Shown here: one piece after another, positions 15,423-35,634 of the stretch
How positions within the stretch are numbered: the first letter of the stretch is position 1
Layout: the number at the start of each line of letters is the position of its first letter
From: Spirochaetia bacterium
Lineage (GTDB): Bacteria; Spirochaetota; Spirochaetia; UBA9216
Assembly: GCA_963675665.1 (NCBI GenBank)
Contig: OY776510.1
Span: 2,112,001 to 2,176,000, forward strand
DNA length: 64,000 nt
Reading direction: 5' to 3'
Position numbers and translations under genes: made by a program
The notes under the pieces: model-generated
The model's database searches: none
What the model was told of the DNA's origin: nothing
What the model saw: the letters and a program-made list of their open reading frames with translations, nothing else

Positions 15423-15456
15423 AGGGTGATTATGCTTATACATAGAGAAATGTCAA

Positions 15457-15520: not shown

Positions 15521-15522
15521 AC

Positions 15523-15590
15523 TTGACTTAGCAATATAAAAGAAATATTATTGATAGTGAAAAGAAAGTAAAAGGAAAGTGTTTGAAAAG
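15523..15590 (+). promoter_or_regulatory. sigma70 promoter with phased GAAA(G) DeoR-type operator
   Basis: TTGACT-17-TATTAT. GAAA/GATAG/GAAAG at 15542, 15553, 15564 and 15575 (11-bp period). Confidence 0.7.
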
Positions 15591-15630
15591 ACAAGCACAA
15601 GCAGATATGGATCTTAACCAAGGAGCAAAA

Positions 15631-16893
15631 ATGAAAACCAAGGCAGTAAGGATATACGGAAAGAAAGATCTTAGACTCGAGGAATTTGAACTTCCTGAAA
15701 TGAAGGATGATGAAATAATAGCGAAGGTAATATCAGACAGCATATGTATGTCGTCATATAAAGCTGCAACCCAGGGCACCGAACACAAACGAATTCCGGA
15801 TGATATTGCTGTTAACCCTACAATAATAGGCCATGAATTCTGCGGCGAGATTGTTGAGGTGGGATCAAAATGGGCTGATCAGTTTAAACCCGGACAGAGA
15901 TTTTCTATCCAGCCTGCACTGAATTACAAGGGTTCGCTTGACGCACCCGGGTATTCATTCCGGTGGATAGGCGGAGACGCCACCAAAATACTGATACCGA
16001 ATGAGGTGATGGAAATGGGTTGTCTTCTGCCGTATGAAGGTGAGGCTTTCTTTATGGGTTCACTTTCGGAACCTGTTTCATGCATTGTCGGTACATATCA
16101 TGCAATGTACCATATCCCGCAGGGAACCTATGTTCATGATATGGGAATCCGTAAAGGTGGAAATATGGCAATTCTTGCCGGTGTCGGTCCGATGGGGCTG
16201 GGCGCTATCGATTACGCCATTCATAATCCTGTAAAACCCGGCCTGCTTGTTGTAACCGATATAGACGATGCAAGGCTTGAGCGTGCCGCTTCAATATACA
16301 CTGTTGGAGAAGCAGCTGAAAACGGCGTAAAACTTGTTTACCTTAATACAAAAAGCTGTAATGATCCTGTTGAACTTCTGATGGAGCAGACGAAAGGAAA
16401 CGGCTATGACGATGTAATGGTGATGGCACCCGTTCGCCCGGTAATCGAGCAGGGCGATTCGATCCTTGCAAAAGACGGATGCCTTAATTTTTTTGCAGGT
16501 CCGTCGGATACAAATTTTAAGGCTGAGATGAATTTTTATAATGTTCATTACGAATTTCACCATATTGTAGGAACCAGCGGCGGAAATACGGAAGATATGA
16601 AGGAATCTCTTGTCATGATGGGCGACGGAAGGCTTAATCCTTCAGCAATGATAACCCATGTCGGCGGTCTTGATTCGGTTGTAGAGACAACCCTGAACCT
16701 TCCGAGCATACCCGGAGGCAAAAAGCTTATGTACACTCACAAAAAGCTGCCGTTGACTGCAATAGCGGATTTTGCTGAAATCGGCAAAACAGATTCTTTT
16801 TTCGCGGAACTTGCAAAGCTAGTTGAAAAGTACAACGGATTATGGAATGTAGAAGCCGAGAAATACCTGCTGGAGAATGCTGAAGATATCTAA
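15631..16893 (+). CDS. sorE: L-sorbose-1-phosphate reductase-like zinc-binding dehydrogenase
   Basis: N-terminus MKTKAVRIYGKKDLRLEEFELP..DSICMSSYK, GHEF, GVGPMG, VGTSGG, ITHVGGL, GGKKL are typical of SorE. Substrate unproven. Confidence 0.8.
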   Translation: MKTKAVRIYGKKDLRLEEFELPEMKDDEIIAKVISDSICMSSYKAATQGTEHKRIPDDIAVNPTIIGHEFCGEIVEVGSKWADQFKPGQRFSIQPALNYKGSLDAPGYSFRWIGGDATKILIPNEVMEMGCLLPYEGEAFFMGSLSEPVSCIVGTYHAMYHIPQGTYVHDMGIRKGGNMAILAGVGPMGLGAIDYAIHNPVKPGLLVVTDIDDARLERAASIYTVGEAAENGVKLVYLNTKSCNDPVELLMEQTKGNGYDDVMVMAPVRPVIEQGDSILAKDGCLNFFAGPSDTNFKAEMNFYNVHYEFHHIVGTSGGNTEDMKESLVMMGDGRLNPSAMITHVGGLDSVVETTLNLPSIPGGKKLMYTHKKLPLTAIADFAEIGKTDSFFAELAKLVEKYNGLWNVEAEKYLLENAEDI

Positions 16894-16915
16894 TTTGCGT
16901 ATTCCTCAGAATTAT

Positions 16916-16961
16916 ATAGCCCCCTGTACGAACTTTTTTCTGCAGGGGGCTATTTTTTTTT
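16916..16961 (+). terminator. intrinsic terminator
   Basis: ATAGCCCCCTGTA...TGCAGGGGGCTAT followed by a T run. Confidence 0.85.
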
Positions 16962-17074
16962 GTTATCGTAATTCCTGTTTATCTGTACAGGCAAGTTTTC
17001 AAATTAATCCGGGCCCGATCCGGTATTCAGTGTTATACTGTTTATGCAAACATAACACATCAAGGAGGGTTGTT

Positions 17075-17608
17075 TTGGAACTTACACCCAAAGATATTCC
17101 AATTGAATTCCTGCAGGGACTGCCGGACGGTATCAAGCTGGTCAGCCGGAAGGGACACCCGTATCTGGTGCTTGAGAAGGCCCTGGATAAAAACGGAAAC
17201 AGTATTATAGACGAAACTGTTCACATCCACGGGGAACCTTCAGTCAAGCTGAAAGCCAAAGTCGGCAAAGCTGAAGGCTCGCTTTTTGTAGACGCATACT
17301 GGGGAAGCCACGCCAAGCTGTACAGCTTCATACCTGATTTTTCAAACGGAGGTTCGGTTGAAGCCTACAGTCCTGTCGACGGATCAAGTTTAATGGTGCC
17401 GTGGGAGTGCCCTATTGAAGGGTGCAACGAAAAGCATGGGATCCTGCTTACGCTGCCGGGGGGGCAGAACTCGATAATCGTATGCGGGAAACTGGGCTGT
17501 CCGGGCCATCATATCAATGTCACAAGACTGGCGGAAGGTGTCAGCGAAACTATAAGCAATATCAACTATTTCGGACACGGAGACGACGATCCGTTCTCCG
17601 ATTTTTAA
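17075..17608 (+). CDS. hypothetical Cys/His-motif protein heading the vor operon
   Basis: TTG start after AAGGAGG, in frame with ORF 16877. CPIEGC...CGKLGCPGH motif. Confidence 0.7.
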   Translation: MELTPKDIPIEFLQGLPDGIKLVSRKGHPYLVLEKALDKNGNSIIDETVHIHGEPSVKLKAKVGKAEGSLFVDAYWGSHAKLYSFIPDFSNGGSVEAYSPVDGSSLMVPWECPIEGCNEKHGILLTLPGGQNSIIVCGKLGCPGHHINVTRLAEGVSETISNINYFGHGDDDPFSDF

Positions 17609-17619
17609 GGAGGTTTTAA

Positions 17620-17838
17620 TTGACTGTTAATCAAGTAGTTGTAAACGCAGAGCTCTGTAAATCCTGCAGGGTATGCGTTGAAACCTGTCCTAATCATTGT
17701 CTGGAAATCGGGAGTGAAATCAATACTCTGGGTTACCAGGCAGTTCGATTCGATTCTGATAAATGCACAGCCTGCGGGCTTTGTTTTTACGTCTGTCCCG
17801 AACCGGGAGTTCTGACTGTAATAAAGGGGGCGGATTAA
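17620..17838 (+). CDS. 2x[4Fe-4S] ferredoxin-like delta subunit of the oxidoreductase
   Basis: CKSCRVCVETCP and CTACGLCFYVCP. Confidence 0.92.
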   Translation: MTVNQVVVNAELCKSCRVCVETCPNHCLEIGSEINTLGYQAVRFDSDKCTACGLCFYVCPEPGVLTVIKGAD

Positions 17839-18887
17839 TGGGTAAAACTCTTATCAAAGGCAACAGCGCCATAGTCCGCGGAGCATTGCTCGGCGGAGCA
17901 ACACATTTCTTCGGGTACCCAATCACCCCGGCGTCTGAGATAGCCCACGGGGCGGCGGATCTTTTTACGCGCGCCGGGCGGACATTTCTGCAGGCTGAAA
18001 GCGAAACAAGCTCAATCAACATGATTTACGGGGCTTCGGCCGCAGGATCAAGAGTTATGACCGCTTCTTCCGGTCCCGGCCTGTCATTGATGCTGGAAGG
18101 CCTAAGTTATATTGCCGGTTGTGAACTGCCTGCAGTTATTGTTGACGTGCAGCGCGCGGGCCCGGGGCTCGGTAATATCTGGCCGGAACAGTCGGATTAC
18201 AACACCTGCTGCAAAGGCGGCGGTCACGGGGCATTCAAGAATATTGTTTTTGCGCCTTCTTCCGGTCAGGAGATGACTGATTTCGCCTATAAGGCCTTTG
18301 ATCTTGCCGACAAATGGAGAATGACTGTAATTATTCTTTCCGACGCCTATATCGGTCAGATGATGGAGCCCGTAGGTTTTCCGACAACAGCAAAACACGG
18401 CGCCCGCAAGGACTGGGCGGTTTACGGCGATGCCGAAAGCAGGAATAACCTTGTATCATCCATCATAATGAACCAAAAAGGTCTTGCAGAGTTGAATGAA
18501 CGGCTCCAGGAAAAATATGCACGGGCAAAAAAAGAGCTGGTCGAATGGGAGGAAGAATATACCGATGATGCGGAGTTTATTCTGGTTGCTTTCGGTATTA
18601 CGGCCCGGATAGCTTCCACCGCCGTGAGAAAGCTGCGGGCCGAAGGCGTAAAAGCCGGTCTTTTCAGACCGAAGACGCTTTGGCCGTTTCCGTCCGAACG
18701 ACTTTCCGGGCTTTCAGCCAGGGTAAAAGCGATGGCTGTTGCCGAATTGAACGACGGAATGATGGCTGAGGATGTTGAACTGGCAGTAGCCGGTAAATGT
18801 CCCGTCTATCGTTATAACTGGTTCGGAGGAACTGTTCCCGGAGCCGCGGAAATAGCAGAAAGAGTAAAGGAGTCGCTGAATGGTTAA
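17838..18887 (+). CDS. vorB: 2-oxoacid:ferredoxin oxidoreductase alpha subunit (VorB-type)
   Basis: FGYPITPASE, QAESE, TASSGPG, QRAGPGLGNI; ATG overlaps the upstream stop. Confidence 0.88.
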   Translation: MGKTLIKGNSAIVRGALLGGATHFFGYPITPASEIAHGAADLFTRAGRTFLQAESETSSINMIYGASAAGSRVMTASSGPGLSLMLEGLSYIAGCELPAVIVDVQRAGPGLGNIWPEQSDYNTCCKGGGHGAFKNIVFAPSSGQEMTDFAYKAFDLADKWRMTVIILSDAYIGQMMEPVGFPTTAKHGARKDWAVYGDAESRNNLVSSIIMNQKGLAELNERLQEKYARAKKELVEWEEEYTDDAEFILVAFGITARIASTAVRKLRAEGVKAGLFRPKTLWPFPSERLSGLSARVKAMAVAELNDGMMAEDVELAVAGKCPVYRYNWFGGTVPGAAEIAERVKESLNG

Positions 18888-20292
18888 GCACGCAAAACCC
18901 AAAGGCTTTTATGATCAGTTTCTGCGCAAGGCTCCCGACGGCGGACCGGCAGCGGAAACAACCCATTACTGTCCCGGATGCGGACATGGAACCGTTCATA
19001 AACTGATAGCTGAAGCAATTGACGATATGAATATCGGAGACAGGACAATTTTTCTTTCACCGGTAGGTTGTTCCGTTTTCGCATACTACTATATGGATAC
19101 GGGAAATATTCAATGTGCGCACGGCCGCGCGCCCGCTGTTGGAACAGGCGTGATCCGAAGCCGGGATGATGCCATTGTTATTTCATACCAGGGCGACGGA
19201 GACCTTGCAGGAATAGGCACTGCGGAAATAGTTCATGCGGCAAACCGCGGAGAGAACATGGCCGTCTTTTTTGTGAACAATGCCATTTACGGAATGACCG
19301 GCGGGCAGCTTGCGCCGACAACGCTGCTGGGGCAGACTACCGCTACAACTCCGCTTGGCCGGCTTAAAGACAGGGAAGGCGGCCCCATTCATATGGCTGA
19401 AGTTATCAATGCCCTTGACGGACCTGTTTTTGTTCAAAGGACTACCCTGAGCGATGCCGCAGGCGTTATGAAAACGCGCAAGGCAATAAGGAAAGCCCTG
19501 ACGAATCAGATTGAGCGCAGGGGTTTCAGCTTTGTGGAAATACTTTCGCCATGCCCGGTCGGCTGGAAAATGCCTCCGGTACAGGCCCGCGCATGGATGA
19601 AAGAAAATATGGAAAAAAACTTCGAGGTTAAGCTTTTTCGCGATCGCGAAGATACGAAACGCGGAACAGGCCGGCTTAGACTGCTGGATGATCCTGAGCT
19701 TCTTGAATTGCTTGGTACCGGTGATACGGAAGAGCCCGTTAAGGGATTACCGCTTGAATCGGAAAAGAGAGTAAAGATATCCGGATTCGGAGGGCAGGGA
19801 GTCATGTCGGCAGGAACTCTTCTTGCGAATGCGGCCATTGCCGAGGGGCTTGAGGCTACCTGGCTTCCGTCCTACGGTCCGGAAATGCGCGGCGGCACGG
19901 CAAATGCCTCTGTGGTTATTTCCGATTCCCCTGTGGGTTCTCCCGTTGTGGATGAGCCTACAGCGCTTCTTGCCATGAACGGACCTTCGCTTGATTCATT
20001 CGAAGATGCAGTAAAACCCGGCGGTTTGATAATTGTAAACAGCTCGATTGTAAAGCGCAGGGTAAAACGTGAAGACGTAGATGTAATCTACGCACCGGTA
20101 AGCGCAATAGCATCCGAAGCCGGATTCATAAAAGGCGCAAACATTGTAATGCTTGCGCTTTACATGCTCAAAACCGGCGCGCCCGGAGTTGATGCGCTGA
20201 AGGCTGTAATTCCCAGGATGATTAAGAAAAAAGAGTTTGTTGAAGTGAATTTGAATCTGGTTAAAAAAGCCGAAGAGTTTCAGGCGGAATAA
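18880..20292 (+). CDS. vorA: 2-oxoacid:ferredoxin oxidoreductase beta-gamma fusion (VorA-type)
   Basis: YCPGCGHG, ThDP motif YQGDGD...NN, IYGMTGGQ, SPCP; gamma part GFGGQG, PSYGPEMRGG. Confidence 0.88.
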   Translation: MVKHAKPKGFYDQFLRKAPDGGPAAETTHYCPGCGHGTVHKLIAEAIDDMNIGDRTIFLSPVGCSVFAYYYMDTGNIQCAHGRAPAVGTGVIRSRDDAIVISYQGDGDLAGIGTAEIVHAANRGENMAVFFVNNAIYGMTGGQLAPTTLLGQTTATTPLGRLKDREGGPIHMAEVINALDGPVFVQRTTLSDAAGVMKTRKAIRKALTNQIERRGFSFVEILSPCPVGWKMPPVQARAWMKENMEKNFEVKLFRDREDTKRGTGRLRLLDDPELLELLGTGDTEEPVKGLPLESEKRVKISGFGGQGVMSAGTLLANAAIAEGLEATWLPSYGPEMRGGTANASVVISDSPVGSPVVDEPTALLAMNGPSLDSFEDAVKPGGLIIVNSSIVKRRVKREDVDVIYAPVSAIASEAGFIKGANIVMLALYMLKTGAPGVDALKAVIPRMIKKKEFVEVNLNLVKKAEEFQAE

Positions 20293-20316
20293 TTCCGTAA
20301 TGGTTCTATAAACCGG

Positions 20317-20341
20317 GGCGGCAGCCGTAACGGCTGTCGCC
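20317..20341. terminator. stem-loop between convergent genes
   Basis: GGCGGCAGCCG-TAA-CGGCTGTCGCC. Confidence 0.7.
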
Positions 20342-20342
20342 T

Positions 20343-20915
20343 TTAATCTCTGGGCTTCTGGGGGACCCTGAAAAGCGCATTTGTATCAAATCCCTGCTTT
20401 TCGGCTATCGTTTTCATTTTCGTGAAAAGCTCCTCATCAATTTCCGGTGTTCTTGCAAGCAGCCAGAGGAATTTTCTTGAGTTGTTTCCGACCACTGCCC
20501 AATCGTAGTTTTCCGTATCCAGTCCGATTATCAAGTAGTCGGATGTAAACAGGTTAAAGAATTTTACCTTCAGGGCGGCTGGAACTGCCGGATCGGGAAT
20601 CCATGCAACAGCCTTTACCTGTGTATAACGACCGTTAAGGTCTTTTTTGAATCCGCTGTTTATAACCTGAATTCTGCCGTCGTTTCTCAGCGAGTATTCA
20701 GCTGTAGCTCCGAAGATGTCGTCTTCAAAACTGTGCTGAAACCGCGCAATTTCATACCATCGGCCAAGATACCTCTCTGCATCTACTGTTTCCATAAGTT
20801 TTACCGGAGCCATACCTTCAGGAGGGATCGAGGCACATGAAGAAAAAATACCCAGAAGCAGTGCCGCAGTGATAACCATGGGGATTGGTCGTTCATAAAT
20901 TGAACATTTATTCAT
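20343..20915 (-). CDS. blc: lipocalin lipoprotein (Blc-like)
   Basis: Lipobox FSSC, RYLGRWYEIAR, LWLLARTP. Confidence 0.9.
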   Translation of the reverse strand: MNKCSIYERPIPMVITAALLLGIFSSCASIPPEGMAPVKLMETVDAERYLGRWYEIARFQHSFEDDIFGATAEYSLRNDGRIQVINSGFKKDLNGRYTQVKAVAWIPDPAVPAALKVKFFNLFTSDYLIIGLDTENYDWAVVGNNSRKFLWLLARTPEIDEELFTKMKTIAEKQGFDTNALFRVPQKPRD

Positions 20916-20983
20916 TTTTGCTCTCCTTAAAAAATAAATTAATTACAGAATGTACATATGGTTTGGGCCGATTATTGTTCCAT

Positions 20984-22522
20984 TTAAAGCAATTTCTTAT
21001 ATGCTTCTATTGAATCAAGAAAGGCATCTACCACTGCCGGATCAAAATGCTCCCCGCGTTCTTTTTTTACTTCCCGGATTACCTCATCTATCGGCCAGGC
21101 CTTTTTATAACAGCGTTGATTGGCCAGGGCATCGACTACGTCGACGAAAGCGGTTATTCTTCCGAATATGTGGATTTCTTCGCCGCGCAGCCCCTGCGGA
21201 TATCCGGTGCCGTTCCATTTTTCATGATGTTGATGGGCAACTATTGCCGCCGCTGCCATTGTTCCGAGTGATGATTTTCTGAAAATGTTGTATCCGATTT
21301 CGGCATGTTTTTTTACTATCTGATATTCTTCAGGAGTCAGCCGCGACGGTTTATTTAGAACTGAGTCGGGAATTCCCACCTTTCCGATATCATGCATCGG
21401 CGCTGTAAGACGCAGTGTCTCAATGTCAGCCTTGCTTAACCCCAGTTTTTCTCCAAGCAAACAGGCAGTTTCGGTTACCCGCCGGATATGTTCAACAGTT
21501 TCTTTCGAGCGTCCTTCAACAACTTCGGAAAACGTGAAGATTATTTCCTTTTGTGTAGCGCTAAGTTCATTATTCATTGATATATTCTCAAATGCCGCGG
21601 CTACATTTGTGCTGAAGATCGAAATCAAATTCCGATCTGTCTCCGTTATCTTTCTCTTCCACTGCAACAGAAGCAGGTTTTTCTCGCCCTTGTGGGATTC
21701 ATAGTAGCCGATGTAAGAAGTCGGGGTGAAAATACTTTTATGTTGCTCAACCGCCTTCATGAGTTGTAAATAAATTTTCTCTGGAATGACATCAGCAATA
21801 CTACAGTTTTCTTTACCAGAGTATATTCCAGTTGCTGCCTGGATAGTATAATCATTTTTTCGATATTCCTGTATCGCGGACAGGCTTGAATAGATAATAT
21901 AGAGGGAATCTTCGTCAAGCCCGAGAATTGAGGTCATCTGCTGAAGAATTCCCGACGCAAATTGATTGAATGAATGGAGTTCAAACAGTCTGCTTGAAGC
22001 ATTGATGACTGTTTCGAGTCCTTTTTTATTTCTGGTTATAGTGTCTATATGTTTATAATCTCTCAAAGATGTTGTAATCACCGTAAACAGTTTCTGAGAT
22101 GTCAGTTCGCTCTTGGCCTTATAGTCATTTATCTCATAGTTGACGATAATTTCCTTTTCCGGGGCCTGTCCAGGCTGACCTGTGCGAAGGATAATTCTTA
22201 CAGCTGAATTTCTAAGGTTCTCCCTGATATCTCTGGCGCATTTAAGCCCTGCATCATCTGTTTCCATAACAACATCAAGAAGAACAAGGGCAATGTCATT
22301 TTCGCGGGAAAGAATATCTATGGCTTCCCTTCCCGAATATGCACTTAGAATCTGAATTGAACGATTTTCGAAGACATAATCTTTCAGAACCAGCCTTGTA
22401 AGAGCATGAATTACCTCTTCATCGTCAGCAACCAGGATTTTCCATGGAGAGGCTTCATATTCCGGCTGCTTTTTGATAATATCTTTTTGGAAAACAATTT
22501 TTTCGTTATTGTTTTTATTCAA
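20984..22522 (-). CDS. response regulator REC-DUF3369-HD-GYP c-di-GMP phosphodiesterase
   Basis: LLDVVMET, LRTGQPG, HDIGK, HHEKWNGTGYP; TTG start adjacent to the kinase stop. Confidence 0.9.
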   Translation of the reverse strand: MNKNNNEKIVFQKDIIKKQPEYEASPWKILVADDEEVIHALTRLVLKDYVFENRSIQILSAYSGREAIDILSRENDIALVLLDVVMETDDAGLKCARDIRENLRNSAVRIILRTGQPGQAPEKEIIVNYEINDYKAKSELTSQKLFTVITTSLRDYKHIDTITRNKKGLETVINASSRLFELHSFNQFASGILQQMTSILGLDEDSLYIIYSSLSAIQEYRKNDYTIQAATGIYSGKENCSIADVIPEKIYLQLMKAVEQHKSIFTPTSYIGYYESHKGEKNLLLLQWKRKITETDRNLISIFSTNVAAAFENISMNNELSATQKEIIFTFSEVVEGRSKETVEHIRRVTETACLLGEKLGLSKADIETLRLTAPMHDIGKVGIPDSVLNKPSRLTPEEYQIVKKHAEIGYNIFRKSSLGTMAAAAIVAHQHHEKWNGTGYPQGLRGEEIHIFGRITAFVDVVDALANQRCYKKAWPIDEVIREVKKERGEHFDPAVVDAFLDSIEAYKKLL

Positions 22523-25066: not shown

Positions 25067-25249
25067 ATTAATCCATGCTCACCATAATTTGTTCTAAACA
25101 GCAAAGTTTACTTAAATGATAATGGAAATAAAAGTGAAAGCAATAGTGAAAAAGAATTTTTCGGTAAAACATTCGATAGAACCCAAAAGCTTCCGGTTTG
25201 TAAAATGCAAAATGAATGAGTAGAAGGAAATATCGTTTTATACAAAAAG

Positions 25250-25541
25250 GCTAAGTGGAGTTTGTCGAAGACAAACTCCAAAATGAATGGATAAAGAACG
25301 AATTTATCTTTGAATGAAACAGCTTAATGGAGTTTGTCGAATGCAAACTCCAAAATGAATTGATAAAGAATGAATTTATCTTTGAATGAAACAGCTTAAT
25401 GGAGTTTGTCGAAGACAAACTCCAAAATGAATTGATAAAGAATGAATTTATCTTTGAATGAAAAAGCTAAGTGGAGTTTGTCGAAGGCAAACTCCAAAAT
25501 GAATTGATAAAAAAAGATTTATCTTTTTTTATCAATTCATT
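25250..25541 (+). repeat. tandem array of four ~72-bp palindromic units
   Basis: TGGAGTTTGTC-GAA-(GA/TG/GG)CAAACTCCA starts at 25256, 25328, 25400 and 25472. Intervening sequence is nearly identical between units. Confidence 0.95.
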
Positions 25542-25543
25542 AC

Positions 25544-25600
25544 TTGACATGCAAACCCAACGGAAATACAATAGAAAGAGAAAAGAAAGCAAATAGAAAG
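25544..25600 (+). promoter_or_regulatory. deoR operon promoter with phased GAAA(G) operator
   Basis: TTGACA-17-TACAAT. GAAA(G) at 25563, 25574, 25585 and 25596. Confidence 0.78.
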
Positions 25601-25613
25601 CAGATGGAGTATT

Positions 25614-26366
25614 ATGCACAATCTTACGGAAAGAGAAAAGAAGATACTTGAGATCCTCGCAGAGGAAGGAAAGATCGGCGTTACCGAGATAAGCGAGCGG
25701 CTGAATGTCTCAAAGGTAACTATCAGAAGCGATTTTGCAAGCCTCGTTGAAAAAGGTGTGATCTACAAAACCCATGGGGGAGCGGTTCCCGCAATGCATC
25801 CGGCTATTCTTGAGCGTCAGCGTGATATGAGCGATGTAAAAAGAGCAATTGCCAGAGAGGCGGCATCAATGGTTGAAGACGGCGATACTATCATGATTGT
25901 AGCCGGAACCACTACTGCTCTGATTGGAAACTATCTTCTTGGAAAGCGGGACATCCGAATTGTAACCAATTCAACCCTTTTGCTTCCATATGCAAGAATG
26001 AACCCGAGTCTGCATTTGACGATTGTAGGCGGAGAGTTCAGACCTCAGGCTGAAGCAATGGTCGGCCCCGAGACCATACGCCAGCTCGAAGAGTTTCATG
26101 TTAAGAAGGCTTTTATCGGTACGGAAGGTTTTTCCTGTGAAGCAGGACTTACCACACAGCTGATAGAAAGCTCCGAAACAATCAGAAAGATGGTTGAGTG
26201 TACCGAACAGGCTATAATGGTAGCTGATTCGGGCAAATATAATAAAATCGGTTTTGTGAAAATTCTTCCGCTTGAAAGTATGAATCTAATAATAACTGAT
26301 AAAGGTCTCGATCCGGCGGTCCAGAAAGAATTTAAAGAGAAAGGACTAAATCTGAGATTAGTCTGA
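25614..26366 (+). CDS. DeoR/GlpR family transcriptional regulator
   Basis: VSKVTIRSD..L...G...KTHGGA, AGTTT, VTNS, ADSGK. Confidence 0.95.
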   Translation: MHNLTEREKKILEILAEEGKIGVTEISERLNVSKVTIRSDFASLVEKGVIYKTHGGAVPAMHPAILERQRDMSDVKRAIAREAASMVEDGDTIMIVAGTTTALIGNYLLGKRDIRIVTNSTLLLPYARMNPSLHLTIVGGEFRPQAEAMVGPETIRQLEEFHVKKAFIGTEGFSCEAGLTTQLIESSETIRKMVECTEQAIMVADSGKYNKIGFVKILPLESMNLIITDKGLDPAVQKEFKEKGLNLRLV

Positions 26367-26378
26367 TAAGGAGGGAAT

Positions 26379-27767: not shown

Positions 27768-27781
27768 CGGGAGGGCGACTG

Positions 27782-29128
27782 ATGTATGATCTTATAGTTA
27801 TTGGAGCCGGTCCGGCAGGTTATATTGCCGCCGAGAGAGCCGGTCATATGGGTAAAAAAGTCCTCATTGTTGAAAAGGAATATCTGGGCGGAGTATGCAC
27901 CAATTACGGTTGCATACCGACAAAAAGCCTTCTGAATTCGGCAAAGCATTTTGTTTACGGACAGGAAGCCGGGCAGTTCGGCGTTCACTTCGACAATCCC
28001 CGTTTTGACTTTCCCGAGGCAATGGCCTGGAAGAACGAAACGGTTGAAACTCTCAGAAAGGGAATTGCCTTTCTGATGAAACAGGGCAAGGTTGATGTTG
28101 TAATGGGCGAGGCGCAGTTTGAGTCTGCAGGCCCCGGTAATAAAAAGATAAATGTTAACGGCACAGCCTATGAAGGCAGCAATCTTCTGATTGCTACCGG
28201 TTCCACGGCCTTTGTCCCGCCGATACCGGGCGCTGACGGTCCCAATGTAGTAACAAACCGCGAGATCCTGAATCTTGAAAAGCTTCCGAAAAAGCTTGCA
28301 GTAATAGGCGGCGGAGTAATCGGCGTTGAATTTGCTTCATTTTTCAGCAGTGTAGGCGTTGAAGTTCATGTAGTGGAGATGATGGATGAGATATGCCCGA
28401 TGATGGACGGCGAAGCGGCTGAACTTCTTCGAAAGAAAATGAGCAAGGTTGATTTTCGGCTGGGCGCCAGGGTTACTGAAGTCACTGCCGACGGTGTTAA
28501 GTTTGAGAAAGACGGTTCTGAATCATTTATCAAATCTGATCTTGTTCTTGTGTCGGTAGGCAGAAAGCCAATTACAACCGGACTTGAAAACCTGGGCCTT
28601 GATATCGGCCGGGGCGGAATTGTAGTGGATGAAAGAATGCGAACTAATTTTCCAGGAGTATATGCTGCAGGTGATGTTACAGGCAAATCGCTTCTGGCCC
28701 ATTCAGCTTCCCGAATGGCCGAAGTAGCCGTAATGGATATGTTCGGCAATAACAAGGAAGGAAACCGTATGCGGTACAACGCAGTGCCCTGGGCAGTTTA
28801 TACCAACCCGGAGGTTGCCGGCTGCGGGATGACCGACACTGAAGCCAAAGAAGCAGGCTTCAATGTTAAATCGGCTTCAATGCAGATGCGCGCAAACGGA
28901 AGGTTTCTGGCTGAACACGGAAAGGACGCAGGTTTCTGCAAGGTTGTTTCAGATGCTGATACGGGGCTTGTCCTCGGAGTTCATATGATAGGGGCTGTAT
29001 GTTCCGAAATGATTGGAACAGCTGCGACCTTTATTGAGGCTGAGCTCAGGGTTCAGGACATAAGGGAGATAATTTTCCCGCATCCGTCTGTCTCCGAGAT
29101 CATTAAAGATGTTTGCTGGATAATATAA
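27782..29128 (+). CDS. lpdA: dihydrolipoyl dehydrogenase (E3)
   Basis: GAGPAG, GGVCTNYGCIPTK, GGGVIG, HPSVSE. Confidence 0.95.
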   Translation: MYDLIVIGAGPAGYIAAERAGHMGKKVLIVEKEYLGGVCTNYGCIPTKSLLNSAKHFVYGQEAGQFGVHFDNPRFDFPEAMAWKNETVETLRKGIAFLMKQGKVDVVMGEAQFESAGPGNKKINVNGTAYEGSNLLIATGSTAFVPPIPGADGPNVVTNREILNLEKLPKKLAVIGGGVIGVEFASFFSSVGVEVHVVEMMDEICPMMDGEAAELLRKKMSKVDFRLGARVTEVTADGVKFEKDGSESFIKSDLVLVSVGRKPITTGLENLGLDIGRGGIVVDERMRTNFPGVYAAGDVTGKSLLAHSASRMAEVAVMDMFGNNKEGNRMRYNAVPWAVYTNPEVAGCGMTDTEAKEAGFNVKSASMQMRANGRFLAEHGKDAGFCKVVSDADTGLVLGVHMIGAVCSEMIGTAATFIEAELRVQDIREIIFPHPSVSEIIKDVCWII

Positions 29129-29280
29129 ATTGTACTTCCGTGTACAATTTATATTTTCTGTTTGAGAGATTTTCTCTCTCAAACAGCTCCAGCTTATCGC
29201 CCTTCCGGGGCGAGAGATATTGGAAGTTGAACAAGCAAAGCGTGTCAAACTTTACCATAATAATCCGCCTTCCGGGGCGA
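29122..29280 (+). repeat. intercistronic multi-hairpin element (C-B-A-B'-A')
   Basis: AATATAAATTGTAC-TTCCGT-GTACAATTTATATT; CTGTTTGAGAGA-TTTTC-TCTCTCAAACAG; TCGCC(C)-TTCCGG-GGCGA; AAGTTGAACA..TGTCAAACTT; CGCC-TTCCGG-GGCG. Confidence 0.75.
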
Positions 29281-29305
29281 AGATGTAATTTATAGGAGAT
29301 AAATT

Positions 29306-31765
29306 ATGCCTAAATCATTACCAATTGATCCTGTTGAAATCAGGAAGCCGGGAACAATAAAAATTAACGATATTCCCGTAAATAAATATAAACCCGATTT
29401 TAAGAAAGAAGAAAAGCTCTACGGAAAGGAAGGCCTTCTCGGTGTTTATTACGATATGCTGATTATCCGTGAGTTCGAGACCATGCTCGACCAGATCAAA
29501 AAGGAAGGTTCGTATCAGGGAATGGAGTATAACCATAAGGGTCCTGCTCACCTTTCCGCCGGCCAGGAGTCGGCTTCTGTAGGCCAGAGTCTTGTCCTCG
29601 ATACGGACGACTTTATTTTCGGTTCACACCGAAGCCACGGAGAAATCCTTGCCAAGTGTTTTTCCGCCATCAAAAAGCTCGATGAAAAAACACTCACCGG
29701 CGTGATGGAAAGCTTTTTCGGCGGGGAGACCCTGTCCGTTGTTGAAAAACACAACAAGGGAGAGAATGTAAAAGATCTTGCGGAGAACTTCGTTCTTTAC
29801 GGCGCCCTTGCAGAAATTTTTGCGCGCGCACAGGGCTTTAACAGGGGGCTCGGCGGATCTATGCATACATTTTTTGCGCCGTTCGGTTCAATGCCGAATA
29901 ACGCTATTGTAGGCGGAAGCGGAGATATTTCGGTAGGTTCCGCTTTATACAAGCGTGTAAACCGGAAACCCGGAATCGTTATTGCCAATATAGGCGACGC
30001 CTCGCTTGCATGCGGACCTGTCTGGGAAGGAATTGTGTTCGCTGCAATGGACCAGTACAGGACCCTCTGGGACAAGGAAATAGGCGGAGCGCCCCCGGTT
30101 ATGATAAATGCATTCAACAACTTTTACGGTATGGGCGGCCAGCCGATGGGTGAGACCATGGGTTATCGTGAAGCGGCACGTCTCGGCGCGGGTGTTAATC
30201 CGGAAGGCATGCATTCCGAGCGGGTGGACGGTTTTAATCCGCTGGCGGTTGCCGACGCAGTTTCCAGGAAGAAGAAGCTGCTTCTTGAAGGCAAGGGCCC
30301 TGTATTCATGGATACGATAACATACCGCCTTTCGGGTCACTCTCCTTCGGACACTTCAACATACCGGACCAAGGAAGAGTTTGCAGCTTTCAAGGAAAAT
30401 GATGCGCTTGACGGTTACGAGAAATATCTTAAAGAGAACGGCGTGCTTGACGACAGTACCGCCGAAGCAATGAAGGCCAGGGTTGCCAAAAAGATAGGCG
30501 ATACAATGCGCATAGCAATTGATGATTCGATATCACCGCATGTTGACGGCAGGTTTATAGAATCGGTTATGTTCTCGAATGAGCAGGCTGAAAAGCTTGA
30601 CGATCGTGAACCGGAAGTCCTGATGCCTCTTGAAGAAAACCCCAGGGTTAAGGCTAATGCACGCAAGGCGCGGTATGCATTCGATGAAAGCGGCAAACAG
30701 CTTCCGGCGTCAAAACAGTTTGTTTACAGAGACGCTCTGTTTGAAGCGGCCATTCACGGTTTCTACACGGACCCGACCCTGATTGCCTACGGCGAAGATA
30801 ACCGCGACTGGGGCGGGGCGTTCGCCGTGTACCGCGGCCTGACCGAAGCCCTTCCTTACCACCGTCTGTTTAACTCGCCGATTTCGGAGGCTTCCATAGT
30901 CGGTACGGGCGTCGGATATGCAATGAGCGGCGGTCGTGCAATGGTTGAACTGATGTACTGCGACTTCCTCGGCCGCGCCGGAGACGAGATATTCAACCAG
31001 ATGCCGAAATGGCAGGCAATGTCGGGCGGCGAGCTGAAGATGCCGCTGGTGCTGAGGGTGTCCGTCGGAAACAAGTACGGGGCACAGCACTCCCAGGACT
31101 GGTCGGCCCTTGTCGCTCATATTCCCGGACTAAAGGTAATGTTCCCGGCAACACCGTATGATGCAAAGGGCATGCTCAACCTTGCTCTGAAAAGTACCGA
31201 TCCGGTAGTGTTCTTTGAAAGCCAGAAACTGTACGGTATCGGTGAAGAATTCGAGAAGAACGGGGTTCCCGAGGGGTATTATGAAATACCTGAAGGCGAG
31301 CCTGCTGTTAAAAGAGAAGGCAAGGACATTACTATTATCACAATAGGCGCTACCTTGTATGAAGCAGTTAAGGCTGCGGACATTCTTGAGGAAAAATACG
31401 GTATGAGCGCCGAAGTTATTGATTTGAGATTTATCAACCCGCTTAACTATGATCCGATTATTGAATCCGTCAAAAAAACCGGCAAGGTACTTCTTTCCTC
31501 CGACGCGAGTGAGCGGGGTTCATACCTGCATAATGTTGCTTCAAACATCAGCCGCCTTGCGTTTGATTACCTTGACGCGCCGCCGGTTGTTGTTGGCTCC
31601 AAAAACTGGATAACTCCGCCGGCGGAAATGGAAGAGCTGTTTTTCCCGAGAGCTTCATGGCTGATTGATGCAATCAGTGAAAACATAATACCGCTTGAAG
31701 GACATGCCGGCACTTCAATTCAGACGGACGGAGAGGTTATCCGTCAGAATCGAGAGGGAGTATGA
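29306..31765 (+). CDS. ThDP-dependent dehydrogenase E1, alpha-beta fusion (PDH/acetoin dehydrogenase superfamily)
   Basis: HLSAGQE, HRSHG, GLGGSMH, GDAS...NN, YRLSGHS; beta part GED, SPISE, GAQHSQ, DAKGML. Confidence 0.92.
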
Positions 31766-33099
31766 GAAGCCGGAAAATCGATAACAAACTTATAGATAAA
31801 CTTAATGCAGGCAGCAGGGACGAACGCGTCTCTGCTGCTTTTAATGTTGGAGAGCAGATAGAAAAACTTGGTCTCTATTCGGACAAGACCGACGAAGTTA
31901 ACAACCATATCCATACGACATTTTCATTCAGTCCCTATTCCCCGTCTATGGCTGCATTTATGGCAAGGTCTGCCGGTTTGAAGGCCGCCGGAAGCGTCGA
32001 CCACGACAGTATAGGCGCTGCAAAAGAGATGGTTGAAGCCTGTAAGGCTTTCGGAATCGGATCTACAGTCGGCTGCGAGCTTAGGGTAAATTTTAACGGG
32101 ACCTTTCTTGAAGAGAAGAAAATCAATAATCCCGATATGGTTAACAGCGGGTATATTGTATTTCACGGAGTGCCGCACGACAGGATTGATGAACTTGCGC
32201 ACTGGCTGAAACCTGTTAATGAGGAACGCAACAGAAGAAACAGGGCCCAGGTTGAAAAGCTCAATTCGCTTTTACCGCAGGGAATTATTACGCCTCTTGA
32301 TTTTGATCGGGATGTGTATTCCATATCCGAGGCTGATAACGGCGGGGCTGTTACGGAGCGGCATATTCTTTACGCGCTGTCGGTCAGAATTGTTGAGAGT
32401 TTCGGCAAAGGCAGGGGGACGGTTGATTTTATCTCTGAAAAGCTTGGAATCAATGTGCCTGACAGGGTGAAGGGATATTTGCTTGACGGTGAGAACCCCC
32501 ATTATTTGTATGATCTGCTCGGAATACTTAAAAGCAATATTGTACCCAGGTTTTATATGATGCCCAAAGAGGCTGAAAGTCCCAACGCCAGGGCCGCGGT
32601 TGATTTTGCCAACAGTATCGGCGCTATTCCGGCTTATTCATATCTCGGCGATGTTGCCGAAAGTCCTACCGGCGATAAAAAGGCCGAGAAATTTGAGGAT
32701 GAATATCTTGATGAAATGTTTCCGATCATTAAGGACCTGGGATTCAGGGCCGTAACCTATATGCCTCCCCGCAATACTCTTGAACAGCTGAAACGGGTTA
32801 TGAATCTCTGTGAAAAATATGATCTAATGCAGATAAGCGGGGTCGATATCAATTCTTCAAGGCAAGTCTTTAATTGTCCCGAGATTATGCTTCCTGAATT
32901 TTCTCATTTGATTGCTTCAACCTGGGCTTTGATAGCGCATGAGCATCTTGCTTCACTGGACTCTTCGCTTGCTTTGTTCAGCCGGACCGGCAGGTTTGCT
33001 GCCCTGTCTCTTGAGGAAAGACTGAAAAAATATACCGGGTTCGGACTTGCAATGGATTTGAAGAACCCTGAAAGAATTATCGATCTTGTACAGGATTAA
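31762..33099 (+). CDS. PHP-domain putative metal-dependent phosphoesterase
   Basis: [14 protein letters not shown]; C-terminal SGVDIN in place of GSDxH. Confidence 0.8.
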
Positions 33100-33113
33100 A
33101 GGAGAGTTTTTTA

Positions 33114-34148
33114 ATGAACAAACTTGATATTGCGCCCCTGCTTCGGGGGCTTACTTTTAACGGGGAAACCGGGGCTGTAATCCGCTGTAAGTCCGAAGAA
33201 ATAAAGGATGATAATACTCTTTCACTCACCGCTGAGAAAATTACCGGGCTAAAGGCTTTGCCGGAAGGAACCTCCTGTGTATCGGTAGAGGGTTTCGGAA
33301 CCTTCGAAATAAAACCGGCAAGGCGGATAGCTGTAGTTACCGGCGGGGCCCAGGGGTTTGGAGCAGGTCTTGTAGAGAAGCTTGTTGAAAAAGACATTTT
33401 TGTTTTTATTGCGGATATGAACCTGAAAGGGGCTGAGAAATTCGCGGATGAGCTTAACAGCCGGTATAAAGGCAAAACAGCTTCCGCGGTTGAGGTTAAT
33501 GTTGCCGATGAAGCTTCGGTTGAACGGATGATAAACGAAGTTGTATTTTCTGCCGGCGGACTGGATATTTTGGTAAACAATGCCGGGGTGCTTAAGGCCG
33601 GAAGCGTAAAAGAGCAGGCTCTTTCCGATTTTGAATTTGTTACCCGGGTGAATTATACCGGTTATTTTCTGTGCGTGAAATATGCATCGAGGGTAATGGC
33701 CGCCCAGAACAGGGCAAGTGTGGGTGCCGGTTTGGGCAGATACTACACCGATATTATTCAGATTAATTCCAAATCAGGGCTCCAGGGCTCAAACAAAAAC
33801 GGGGCCTACGCCGGAGGAAAGTTCGGCGGCATAGGGCTGACCCAGAGCTTTGCCATGGAGCTGGTTGAAGACAATATCAAGGTGAATTCCATATGTCCGG
33901 GGAATTTTTTCGAAGGACCTCTCTGGGCTGATCCGGAGAGAGGTCTTTTTGTGCAGTATCTGAATGCCGGGAAGGTTCCCGGGGCTAAAACCATTGATGA
34001 TGTAAAAGCTTTTTATGAGGCCAAGGTGCCGATGGGCCGTGGATGCAATCCCGACGACATAGCGAAAGCATTGTTTTACCTTGTAGCTCAGAAGTATGAA
34101 ACGGGACAGGCCCTGCCGGTAACAGGCGGCCAGATTATGCTTAAATAA
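33114..34148 (+). CDS. SDR, sorbitol-6-phosphate dehydrogenase (SrlD)-like, with a ~70-aa N-terminal extension
   Basis: TGGAQGFG, NNAG, IQINSKSG..GS.KN..Y...KFGGIGLTQS. Confidence 0.82.
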   Translation: MNKLDIAPLLRGLTFNGETGAVIRCKSEEIKDDNTLSLTAEKITGLKALPEGTSCVSVEGFGTFEIKPARRIAVVTGGAQGFGAGLVEKLVEKDIFVFIADMNLKGAEKFADELNSRYKGKTASAVEVNVADEASVERMINEVVFSAGGLDILVNNAGVLKAGSVKEQALSDFEFVTRVNYTGYFLCVKYASRVMAAQNRASVGAGLGRYYTDIIQINSKSGLQGSNKNGAYAGGKFGGIGLTQSFAMELVEDNIKVNSICPGNFFEGPLWADPERGLFVQYLNAGKVPGAKTIDDVKAFYEAKVPMGRGCNPDDIAKALFYLVAQKYETGQALPVTGGQIMLK

Positions 34149-34194
34149 GTTTGCTGATGCAAACTCCATTTCACCAAACCGCCTTCCATGGCGG
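34148..34194 (+). repeat. intercistronic copy of the hairpin element (B-A)
   Basis: AGTTTGC-TGAT-GCAAACT(CCA) ... CCGCC-TTCCAT-GGCGG. Confidence 0.78.
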
Positions 34195-34218
34195 CCAGGA
34201 TTTAATTAGGAGATAATT

Positions 34219-35634
34219 ATGAAGAAATATATTGCTGTAGATCTTGGAGCCTCAAACGGGAGGGTTATAGTCGGAAACCTTGAAGAGATAGAGGTTGTTG
34301 CACGATTCCCCAGCCGACCGGTACGTATCAAGGACTCAATCTACTGGGATTTCCTGGGACTTATCGCTGATATCCGTGAGGGGTTGAAAACAGCATTTAA
34401 AAAGTACGGTGATGAAATCGTCAGTATCGGTTTTGATACCTGGGGGGTGGATTATGCGCTGCTGGACAAGAATGGAGATTTGATCGGAAATCCTTACCAT
34501 TACCGGGATAGTCGAAATGACGGGATGGTGGAGAAGTTTTTTGAAATTGTCCCCAAAGAAGAAGTGTATAATGAAACAGGCATCCAGTTCATGCAGATAA
34601 ATACTCTGTATCAGATTTTTGCCCACTACAGGAATTCACCGGAAATCGTAAAGGCCGCAAGACATTTTCTTACCGTGCCGGATTTATTGAACTACTGGCT
34701 GACCGGAGTGATGAAGAACGAGTTTTCCGAGGCTACTACAACCCAGTTGTATAATCCGGTGAAACGGAAATGGTCTGAAAAGCTGATAAAAGCAGCAGGA
34801 TTTAATCCGGACATTTTCAAGGAAGTAGTGCTTCCCGGCACAGTGATAGGGCCTCTTCTTCCTGTGGAAGCAAAAAAACTTGGTGCGGGCGGGCATGTGG
34901 TGGTGACGACGGCGGCCTGTCATGATACGGCTTCGGCAGTTGCTGCAATGCCTGCAGTCTCCGGAGGAAATCCGGCATTTCTGAGTTCAGGCACATGGTC
35001 TCTGCTTGGAATCGAACTTGATCAGCCGGCAATAAACGAGCTCAGTTTTAAATACGATTTTACAAATGAAGGCGGACGCGAAGGAACTATTACGTATCTT
35101 AAAAACATTATGGGCCTCTGGATTATCCAGGAATGCAAGGCCTTCTGGGATAAAAACGGAGAAGAATACAGCTGGCCGGAAATTGTTCAGATGGCCGAAG
35201 ATGCCGGTTCTTTAGATGCCAGAATAGATGTTGATGATGCTTTATTCTTTGATTCCAATCTTACCAGCTCGGGAATGCCGCTCAGGATACAGAATTACTG
35301 CAGGGAACACGGCCGAACGGTGCCGGAGACTGTTGCCGAAATTTCAGCCTGTGTTTTCAGAAGCCTTGCTGATAAGTATGCTGTAACGGTTAAAATGCTT
35401 AAAGAGAGTACCGGCTCAAAGATTGACAGTCTGTATATTATAGGAGGCGGATGCCAGAATGATTTGCTTAACCGATGGACTGCCGAAGCTGTCAGGATTC
35501 CGGTTTTTGCCGGGCCTGTAGAGGCTACTGCTATCGGGAATATTCTTGTCCAGGCAATTTCAGCAGGAGATGTTTCTTCATATGAAGAAGGCCGCAGGAT
35601 AATTGCGGAAAATTTTGAAGTAAAGAGGTACTGA
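34219..35634 (+). CDS. rhamnulokinase-like FGGY sugar kinase
   Basis: AVDLGASNGR, DTWGVDY, HDTASA, SSGTWSL, NIMGLW, GPVEATAIGN. Confidence 0.88.
   Translation: MKKYIAVDLGASNGRVIVGNLEEIEVVARFPSRPVRIKDSIYWDFLGLIADIREGLKTAFKKYGDEIVSIGFDTWGVDYALLDKNGDLIGNPYHYRDSRNDGMVEKFFEIVPKEEVYNETGIQFMQINTLYQIFAHYRNSPEIVKAARHFLTVPDLLNYWLTGVMKNEFSEATTTQLYNPVKRKWSEKLIKAAGFNPDIFKEVVLPGTVIGPLLPVEAKKLGAGGHVVVTTAACHDTASAVAAMPAVSGGNPAFLSSGTWSLLGIELDQPAINELSFKYDFTNEGGREGTITYLKNIMGLWIIQECKAFWDKNGEEYSWPEIVQMAEDAGSLDARIDVDDALFFDSNLTSSGMPLRIQNYCREHGRTVPETVAEISACVFRSLADKYAVTVKMLKESTGSKIDSLYIIGGGCQNDLLNRWTAEAVRIPVFAGPVEATAIGNILVQAISAGDVSSYEEGRRIIAENFEVKRY

Follow-up and report, generated by a model that had tools for sequence, protein, structure and literature searches.

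The gene set described here lies in a window of 64,000 nucleotides from the genome of a Spirochaetia bacterium (assembly GCA_963675665.1, contig OY776510.1, positions 2,112,001 to 2,176,000 of the forward strand), and all feature coordinates below are window coordinates. It is made up of two transcription units. The larger one is an operon that begins with the gene of a DeoR-family regulator and continues with the genes of the E2, E3 and fused E1 components of a thiamine diphosphate (ThDP)- and lipoyl-dependent dehydrogenase complex, of a PHP-fold protein, of an SrlD-like short-chain dehydrogenase/reductase (SDR), and of a rhamnulokinase-like FGGY kinase. The other unit begins with the gene of a SorE-family dehydrogenase of the medium-chain dehydrogenase/reductase (MDR) type. 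The gene content was derived from Pfam and NCBIfam scans of the window proteins, and these scans bear out the gene list of the operon that an earlier note on this DNA had drawn up. The features are as follows:

15523..15551, + strand: promoter of the SorE-like dehydrogenase unit; -35 TTGACT (15523-15528), 17-nt spacer, -10 TATTAT (15546-15551); 10 of 12 consensus matches
15542..15579, + strand: operator-like direct repeats at this promoter; GAAA at 15542, GATA at 15553, GAAAG at 15564 and 15575; 11-nt spacing
15631..16893, + strand: SorE-family MDR dehydrogenase of the ketose-1-phosphate reductase type, 420 aa; Pfam ADH_N and ADH_zinc_N
16877..17608, + strand: 243-aa protein of no family, with a 17-nt overlap with the end of the dehydrogenase gene; no Pfam or NCBIfam match
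17763..20292, + strand: 2-oxoacid:ferredoxin oxidoreductase; VorB-like alpha subunit (17763-18887) and fused beta-gamma subunit (18880-20292)
25544..25572, + strand: promoter of the DeoR operon; -35 TTGACA (25544-25549), 17-nt spacer, -10 TACAAT (25567-25572)
25563..25600, + strand: operator-like direct repeats at the DeoR promoter; GAAA at 25563, GAAAG at 25574, 25585 and 25596; 11-nt spacing
25614..26366, + strand: DeoR-family regulator, 250 aa; HTH_DeoR 62.5 bits, DeoRC 150 bits
26379..27767, + strand: E2 dihydrolipoyl acyltransferase; Pfam lipoyl, E3-binding and catalytic domains
27782..29128, + strand: E3 dihydrolipoyl dehydrogenase; TIGR01350 479.5 bits, cut-off 408.8
29306..31765, + strand: fused E1 alpha-beta (ThDP), 819 aa; E1_dh, Transket_pyr and Transketolase_C
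31762..33099, + strand: PHP-fold protein, 445 aa, TrpH/Cv1693-like; weak PF02811 match; start overlaps the E1 stop (ATGA)
33114..34148, + strand: SrlD-like SDR, 344 aa, with a 70-aa N-terminal extension; PRK12384 232 bits
34219..35634, + strand: FGGY kinase, rhamnulokinase-like, 471 aa; TIGR02627 467 bits

The start of the SorE-like dehydrogenase was placed at the ATG at 15631, which has an AAGGAG ahead of it. The NCBIfam models nearest to the DeoR protein are AgaR, GlpR, YciT and SrlR, each scoring below its own cut-off. No gene of a phosphotransferase system (PTS) was detected by Pfam and NCBIfam in either transcription unit, nor in the flanks of six related loci.

Two transcription units of one regulon

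Both promoters are built in the same way from a -35 block, TTCATTACTTGAC (15515-15527 and 25536-25548), a spacer of 17 nt and a -10 box, and in the 5,150,563-base genome this block occurs without any mismatch only at these two sites. At both promoters the direct repeats span the -10 box and the transcript start, and the first repeat ends one base ahead of the -10 box, as had been noticed before. The earlier note had described one and the same operator at the two promoters, which holds for the 11-nt spacing and for seven of the eight repeats it had listed, but the repeat at 15553 reads GATA and not GAAA. All four GAAA repeats are exact at the DeoR promoter, and the pattern did not arise in any of 100 shuffles. 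If GATA is allowed, the four-repeat pattern is found genome-wide at these two sites only, and a pattern of three GAAAG has a single site in the genome, which is the DeoR promoter. Genome scans for further regulon members with spaced GAAA(G) motifs returned only the two known promoters and a few scattered matches. In the case of three GAAA, there were 8 matches with about 3 expected, the scattered ones lying mostly in coding-looking sequence and none of them together with the shared promoter block. In the same genome-wide repeat scans, the operator was absent from the RhaA/RhaE locus of this genome, which is described below.

The two upstream regions are 77% identical over about 150 nt. The part of this similarity that lies upstream of the -35 boxes is to some extent due to a hairpin element which is repeated genome-wide and thus not specific for these two promoters, and as this element is found at about 17 places in the genome, the likeness upstream of the -35 boxes is uninformative on regulation. 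The element forms two hairpins just upstream of both -35 boxes (15426-15524 and 25256-25526), and before the DeoR promoter it is a 72-bp tandem array of 3.8 copies. Its core hairpin, AGTTTGNCGAAGNCAAACT, adjoins rRNA and tRNA genes at several of its genome places and shows compensating variation at stem positions. A search of the leaders with Rfam gave no hit over threshold; a sub-threshold match to TD-2 covers 15426-15524, upstream of the -35 box, at full model length and with 42.6 bits, the gathering score being 48.7.

Relatives were collected by an E1 scan of one genome per species, which resulted in 78 loci, all from spirochaete isolates or metagenome-assembled genomes, with E1 orthologues of 65-91% identity. 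When the open reading frames (ORFs) of these loci were clustered, E1 was present in 72, E2 in 65, E3 in 61, PHP in 50, SDR in 47, the SorE-like dehydrogenase in 46, DeoR in 45 and the FGGY kinase in 42 loci, and these counts are lower bounds, because many contigs are short. The usual order is DeoR-E2-E3-E1-PHP-SDR-dehydrogenase-kinase on one strand, or a close variant thereof. The cluster starts with DeoR in 45 related loci, the PHP gene directly follows E1 in 50, and the SorE-like dehydrogenase lies inside the cluster in 46 of the 78. As this gene normally is part of the operon, the distant dehydrogenase gene of the window belongs to the set: both here and in L009, the closest relative, the gene has left the operon but retained its own copy of promoter and operator.

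The operator recurs in these relatives. Within 140 nt before DeoR, at least three GAAA at strict 11-nt spacing are found in 35 of 48 loci, as compared to 1 of 4800 shuffles. The same repeat test before other ORFs of these loci gave 12 matches in 944, and all 12 are before the dehydrogenase or E2 gene of the cluster, in genomes whose cluster is split or has no DeoR at its head. In five out of five Oceanispirochaeta-type genomes that have only E2-E3-E1 together, genes for the PHP protein and the SorE-like dehydrogenase are kept 17-65 kb off. The two transcription units therefore are one regulon, as the earlier note had supposed: their operator is unique in the genome, and most relatives have the dehydrogenase gene inside the DeoR operon. 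The linkage of the complex to the sugar genes, which the earlier note had made a point on which its proposal depended, is conserved across at least 31 genera of one spirochaete class. It is well supported that the regulon is real and conserved, and DeoR probably binds the GAAA repeats. What emerges is a DeoR-repressed catabolic gene set of spirochaetes that is driven from two promoters in this genome.

Further genes follow the SorE-like dehydrogenase in the window. The 243-aa protein is probably co-transcribed with the dehydrogenase, and it stands beside this gene only in the closest relative, L009. The 2-oxoacid:ferredoxin oxidoreductase (alpha subunit NCBIfam NF005507 with 468 bits, cut-off 399; Pfam POR_N, PFOR_II, TPP_enzyme_C and POR in the unit) has the same arrangement behind the dehydrogenase only in L009, and judged from its position alone it may be part of the regulon.

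Enzymes encoded by the gene set

The SorE-like gene had been assigned from the sequence alone, and it indeed codes for a true SorE-family member: over the full length, 211 of 418 residues (50%; 69% similarity) are identical to the annotated sorE of Klebsiella, a reference that stems from a sorC-D-FBAM-E operon, and the identity to E. coli yggP is 56%. Most homologues have a length of 420 aa, several sources name close ones L-sorbose 1-phosphate reductase, and among solved structures, sorbitol dehydrogenases and a ketose reductase are nearest to it. By its sequence, the enzyme would reduce a ketose 1-phosphate.

In case of the SDR, SrlD is the nearest family, in line with the first assignment, even though the score is below the curated cut-off for SrlD (232 bits with PRK12384, cut-off 307). 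Among the 25 plasmid matches listed, the best 12 are srlD with 37-40% identity, nine of them annotated so and three on unannotated E. coli records of the same identity, and the identity to Klebsiella SorD is 26%. Because RhaE, the aldolase part of RhaEW proteins, is unfused in these genomes, the SDR was considered as a split-off RhaW. This was ruled out by the srlD best matches and by the 139 bits obtained on positions 413-670 of the RhaEW model TIGR02632 (whole-protein cut-off 568), as against 232 bits for SrlD. The N-terminal extension of the SDR (33114-33320), which SrlD does not have, comprises 70-130 aa in the orthologues and varies in length and sequence. It has conserved only an LRGLTFDG-like motif with an invariant Arg-Gly and could, as far as such a pattern can tell, be a docking peptide.

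The operon kinase reaches 467 bits on the rhamnulokinase model TIGR02627, which is below the curated 528, and it is the best match to this model in the genome; of the three other genomes with a match, two have its orthologue as the sole match at E <= 1e-60. On the whole genome, the model found 37 matching stretches, corresponding to about 28 separate open frames of FGGY size, a very large number of sugar kinases for a single genome.

Of the complex components, E3 alone passes a curated cut-off. On pyruvate dehydrogenase (PDH) models, the alpha part of E1 scores 161 bits (cut-off 394) and its beta part 235 and 238 bits (cut-offs 454 and 321), and the best NCBIfam model of E2 is the PDH E2 with 277 bits (cut-off 445). 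Another E1a/E1b/E2/E3 set of the same genome is nearer to the PDH models, with 357 and 384 bits. A midpoint-rooted tree was calculated from 16 E1 beta sequences, including single references for PdhB, BkdB and AcoB with automatic labels. In this tree, the spirochaete and alphaproteobacterial fused E1 form a clade of their own (100/100 support, stem length 1.42) that is apart from the three labelled references and from the two other E1 sets of the genome. The fused E1 thus differs from PdhB, BkdB and AcoB to the extent that it does not group with the labelled references in a small tree of 16 sequences; a comparison with such types had been proposed in the earlier note.

Several other E1 arrangements were encountered. 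The genome contains a complete E1a-E1b-E2-E3 string beside a GntR regulator and an LsrR/SorC-type regulator (L116, G000:C1:2215672-2220529) and an E1a/E1b pair that is parted by an IS110 transposase gene (L117, G000:C1:1287576-1290920). The nearest E1 relatives outside the phylum, with 52% identity, are on Rhizobium and Pleomorphomonas plasmids. There, in L121 (12001-17649; plasmid pRL8 of Rhizobium johnstonii 3841) and L122 (10366-16534), a fused E1 is accompanied by a 78-aa lipoyl protein and an AcoC-like hydrolase, with a sugar kinase, a SorC-type regulator, sugar ABC transporter genes and a sugar-phosphate isomerase as neighbours, and this is an uncharacterised acetoin-dehydrogenase-like sugar cluster. 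In the one paper found to name pRL80081, it is listed simply as a putative hydrolase that is not essential. Another kind of fused E1 (34-39% identical) comes without E2 or E3 (L127, 8705-10996; L128, 7790-10063). In L127 it adjoins a transaldolase-like gene, a GntR regulator and ABC permeases, and the genomes of one family in the phylum contain six or seven matches each.

The PHP protein was modelled with a predicted local distance difference test (pLDDT) score of 92.9, and the best Foldseek matches of the model are 3e0f, 2yb1 and 9etk, with a probability of 1.00 and template modelling (TM) scores of 0.67-0.72 normalised to the target. According to this predicted model, the protein is a PHP barrel of the TrpH/Cv1693/RNase AM phosphoesterase group. 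The HxH motif is kept, with H49 and H51 invariant in 39 orthologues. In the HMMER alignment to 3e0f, SFS (F56/S57) stands opposite SDG and DiN (N364) opposite DwH; F56 is present in at least 90% of the 39 orthologues, and S57 and N364 are invariant. Measured against the residues of 3e0f that we take to bind metal, two metal-ligand positions therefore appear to be altered. No PHP homologue was found in plasmid records. Going by the names of their sources, close homologues of the PHP protein and of the SorE-like dehydrogenase also occur in Lentisphaeria, Pontiella, Clostridia and Bacteroidales. In one metagenomic protein of 676 aa (P0171), the C-terminal 200 residues of an E1 orthologue (71% identity to positions 612-812 of E1) are joined in one frame to a full PHP protein, which is either a real E1-PHP fusion or the result of a lost stop codon.

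Link to L-rhamnose and a proposed route

What sugar is degraded? The earlier note had thought of L-sorbose or of ketoses in general, but the neighbours of the cluster point to L-rhamnose, and also to fucose, which are 6-deoxyhexoses. Recurrent neighbours are the RhaS ABC binding protein (11 loci, over the RhaS cut-off), the mutarotase RhaM (11), L-rhamnose isomerase RhaA (7), an aldolase-like protein of the RhaE type that lacks the RhaW half (9), FucI (4) and FucU (7). In one complete genome (G035), the order E2-E1-PHP-SDR-kinase-dehydrogenase is followed by a histidine kinase and an AraC-type response regulator, and then by RhaS, RhaM, RhaE and RhaA; the cluster kinase of this genome is a different, non-RhaB-like FGGY kinase.

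Co-occurrence was counted across 121 evenly sampled genomes of the spirochaete class, and since related genomes are not independent, the figures are to be read as counts and not as a statistical test. The PHP gene is present in 49 of these genomes, RhaA in 46, a RhaE-like gene in 45 and an orthologous E1 in 61. RhaA is found in 42 of the 49 genomes with the PHP gene, and the PHP gene in 42 of the 46 with RhaA; E1 is present in 47 of the 49 PHP genomes, the two exceptions being 81% and 86% complete. The rhamnose locus of the window genome lies at 4.77 Mb (L103, G000:C1:4758001-4778000) and contains RhaA, a RhaE-like gene, a LarA-family racemase, an aldehyde:ferredoxin oxidoreductase and two RhaS-type rhamnose ABC systems. 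A sugar kinase was not found in this locus. The RhaE-like gene is a separate gene of 366 aa that is not fused to RhaW, and the RhaE-like proteins in general reach only 95-127 bits on RhaEW models with cut-offs of 568-1014, the RhaW half being missing. In G265, a genome that has neither the PHP nor the RhaE-like gene, a decayed cluster was found (L135, G265:C8:66001-86000). E2 and E3 are present, but only 98 aa of the kinase are left, RhaA is interrupted by an internal stop, and E1 is broken into two parts, residues 1-218 and residues 216-819, by an insertion of about 3.5 kb with two opposite-strand ORFs. Although it is a single case, this joint decay of the parts speaks for functional dependence. 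In this bacterial class, the set is part of the machinery for L-rhamnose (6-deoxyhexose) utilisation, and it is this tie of the gene set to L-rhamnose genes that is new here.

How could the enzymes work together? In L-sorbose catabolism, L-sorbose 1-phosphate is reduced at C2 by SorE, and the penultimate carbon is then oxidised by SorD or SrlD. By analogy, the combination of a kinase with a SorE-type and a SrlD-type enzyme would follow the sorbose logic, with the kinase in place of the PTS. L-rhamnose isomerase, which is encoded elsewhere in the genome, would convert L-rhamnose to L-rhamnulose, and the FGGY kinase of the operon would phosphorylate the latter to a 6-deoxyketose 1-phosphate. The SorE-family dehydrogenase would then reduce C2, giving a 6-deoxyhexitol 1-phosphate, and the SrlD-like SDR would oxidise the penultimate carbon, giving a 1-deoxy-2-ketohexose 6-phosphate. 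This product would have the head group CH3-CO-CHOH-, as has acetoin, and it would be no target for phosphofructokinase and could not enter glycolysis. Acetoin dehydrogenase converts a methyl ketol to acetyl-CoA and an aldehyde. In a similar reaction, the fused E1 together with E2 and E3 would cleave the sugar phosphate, passing the acetyl group via lipoamide to acetyl-CoA and releasing a tetrose 4-phosphate, and one of the sugar phosphates would bring DeoR off its operator. This movement of the carbonyl group to the position beside the methyl group, followed by an acetoin-dehydrogenase-like cleavage, is our leading reading, to which we assign a probability of roughly 0.4.

A number of points weigh against it. 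The first group concerns the complex itself. The catalytic domain of E2 is of the 2-oxoacid_dh type in standard domain order and not of the AcoC type, and in the alignment to human E1 alpha the fused E1 retains the GHS loop motif of 2-oxoacid E1 alpha subunits. Orthologous E1 genes occur without the PHP gene in 14 of the 61 E1 genomes of the 121-genome sample, and of five near-complete ones tested among these (93-100% complete), all five also do not have the SorE-like dehydrogenase and RhaA. The flanks of four stand-alone (DeoR-)E2-E3-E1 units contain no other gene of the set and no RhaA, RhaE, sugar kinase, isomerase or transporter; they hold mostly unrelated genes, and one of the four loci keeps the GAAA operator. 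It follows that the complex of those lineages acts on a substrate that is independent of the SorE-like dehydrogenase and the SDR. A paralogous fused E1 (50-52%) stands beside GntR/FCD regulators, tripartite ATP-independent periplasmic (TRAP) transporters and an Ldh_2 enzyme, and this is a setting of the 2-oxoacid type. The residues F310, F362 and P567, which are invariant in 46 cluster-linked E1, were considered as markers of specificity and rejected, as they follow phylogeny and not context: in G035, the E1 is cluster-linked and yet has Y, W and A at these positions, as do stand-alone E1, and positions 310 and 362 are outside the GHS loop in the alignment to human E1 alpha. That a dedicated E1 may cleave a ketose phosphate, as the earlier note had suggested, is an inference, and orthologous units stand alone in genomes without the PHP gene.

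The second group concerns the pathway. All 42 genomes in which PHP and RhaA occur together also have the RhaE-like gene, whereas the four RhaA genomes without PHP lack it. The classical aldolase split is thus encoded alongside, so that an aldolase-independent route is not needed to account for rhamnose use, and the proposed pathway leaves the role of the RhaE-like protein unexplained. The pathway also contains no role for the PHP protein. By Fischer projection, the tetrose phosphate obtained from L-rhamnulose would be D-threose 4-phosphate or L-erythrose 4-phosphate, neither of which is a central metabolite. Moreover, in this genome the unit of the SorE-like dehydrogenase carries a 2-oxoacid:ferredoxin oxidoreductase.

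What alternatives have to be considered? The main one, which we regard as rather unlikely but by no means negligible, is that the complex is an ordinary 2-oxoacid dehydrogenase, most likely for pyruvate, that is co-regulated with rhamnose genes. An old DeoR-E2-E3-E1 unit making acetyl-CoA would have been joined later by the kinase and the rhamnose-related genes, and the SorE-like, SrlD-like and PHP proteins would serve a side reaction. The RhaE-type aldolase would split rhamnulose 1-phosphate to dihydroxyacetone phosphate (DHAP) and L-lactaldehyde, both of which end as pyruvate, and this would be oxidised by the complex and, in the window genome, possibly also by the co-located ferredoxin oxidoreductase. 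Such a model agrees with the stand-alone units without PHP, dehydrogenase and RhaA, one of which has the same operator, with the RhaE-like gene that accompanies the set in 42 of 42 genomes, with the best NCBIfam models of E1 and E2 being PDH models and the standard domain order of E2, and with the 2-oxoacid:ferredoxin oxidoreductase behind the SorE-like gene at the same promoter. The rhamnose locus with RhaA, the RhaE-like protein, the aldehyde:ferredoxin oxidoreductase and the LarA-type racemase would fit a conversion of lactaldehyde to lactate, and, according to the text of Rodionova et al. 2013 (PMC3870299), the rhamnose regulons of some bacteria include L-lactate dehydrogenase genes, by which the pathway is extended to pyruvate. 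However, an ordinary pyruvate dehydrogenase would leave three conserved genes without a role, two of which are of clear sugar-phosphate types (SorE 50%, srlD-like 37-40%), and the SDR resembles SrlD (232 bits) more closely than RhaW, the lactaldehyde dehydrogenase domain (139 bits). E1 and E2 are far below the PDH cut-offs, E1 is outside the labelled PdhB group, and a more PDH-like set exists elsewhere in the genome. In G265, which has no PHP and RhaE-like genes, the broken E1, the stop in RhaA and the kinase remnant indicate that the parts are decaying together.

An improbable further model assumes two branches from the 6-deoxyketose 1-phosphate, one by the RhaE aldolase and one by the reductase, the SDR and E1, which either balance reducing equivalents in fermentation or serve rhamnose versus fucose; the RhaE-like protein might in this case be an epimerase acting on a ketose phosphate, like AraD, which has the class II aldolase fold. 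This would explain why the RhaE-like gene co-occurs so strictly with the set and why FucI/FucU are found beside the cluster in addition to RhaA/RhaM, and with scores of only 95-127 bits on the RhaEW models, the RhaE-like protein may have another reaction than RhaE. Branch sharing and epimerase activity are, however, assumptions of this model, and the stand-alone complexes and the PHP protein are not explained by it.

As to the earlier note, its observation is confirmed and its interpretation holds in part: the regulon, the kinds of enzymes and the linkage stand, a 6-deoxyhexose takes the place of the generic ketose, and the dedicated E1 is not supported. Extended beyond this genome, the proposal would be that spirochaetes, and probably some other phyla, degrade 6-deoxyhexoses by reduction and re-oxidation followed by a lipoyl- and ThDP-dependent cut to acetyl-CoA and a tetrose phosphate, a generalization which we put forward tentatively and consider somewhat more likely to be wrong than right.

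Comparison with known systems

Rhamnose and fucose rank among the major sugars in the glycans of plants, algae and mucins, and to our knowledge, all known bacterial routes for them pass through an aldolase and lactaldehyde. If the proposed cleavage takes place, no earlier case would be known of a complex of the 2-oxoacid dehydrogenase type with a sugar phosphate as its substrate, and the cleavage would be a new reaction for a very well-studied enzyme class. It would at the same time be a new carbon-saving route for deoxy sugars, in which all six carbons are kept and none is lost as propanediol. If the complex is only a pyruvate dehydrogenase, there are still three conserved rhamnose-linked enzymes without a function. 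In either case, the sequences define a candidate pair of repressor and operator, and cultured hosts exist, such as Sphaerochaeta halotolerans, Sphaerochaeta pleomorpha, Marispirochaeta aestuarii and Salinispira pacifica. The central reaction is directly testable, and the set is built from known kinds of enzymes.

No description of the cluster was found in a full-text literature search. The RhaEW rhamnose pathway, as outlined in the text of PMC3870299, has in common with these genomes RhaA, RhaM, an RhaS-type ABC system, a rhamnulokinase-like kinase and a RhaE-type protein, and DeoR-family rhamnose regulators are known from other phyla according to the same text. In contrast to that pathway, RhaE is here not fused to RhaW, and the kinase is in the DeoR operon together with the complex and not with RhaA/RhaE. 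The text of that paper, whose supplementary tables may list further genomes, mentions neither spirochaetes nor pyruvate dehydrogenase.

PDH with a heterotetrameric E1, as known from Geobacillus (1W85) and human (1NI4), has the same domain content of E1, E2 and E3 and the same GHS motif, and it provides the best matches among solved structures. The cluster E1 differs from it by the fusion of alpha and beta and by about 100 extra N-terminal residues, and the scores well below the cut-offs, the separate clade and the co-transcription with sugar-phosphate enzymes further set the complex apart from PDH.

The L-sorbose operon of Klebsiella and E. coli (sorC-sorD-sorFBAM-sorE) resembles the cluster in pairing a SorE-family reductase with an SDR polyol-phosphate dehydrogenase, and in the cluster, as in that operon, reductase and SDR would shift the carbonyl from one chain end to the other. 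Unlike the L-sorbose operon, the cluster has a kinase and no PTS, its SDR is of the SrlD type (26% to SorD), its neighbours belong to 6-deoxy sugars, and it adds the lipoyl dehydrogenase complex and the PHP protein.

Acetoin dehydrogenase (AcoA/AcoB/AcoC/AcoL), finally, shares with the complex the ThDP-dependent E1 alpha and beta parts, the lipoyl carrier and E3, and it is the reaction of this enzyme that is proposed here. An AcoC-type hydrolase was seen only beside the alphaproteobacterial E1 relatives and not in the cluster, where E2 is of the 2-oxoacid_dh and not of the AcoC type; the cluster E1 is fused and apart from the labelled AcoB, and the substrate that we propose for it is a sugar phosphate.

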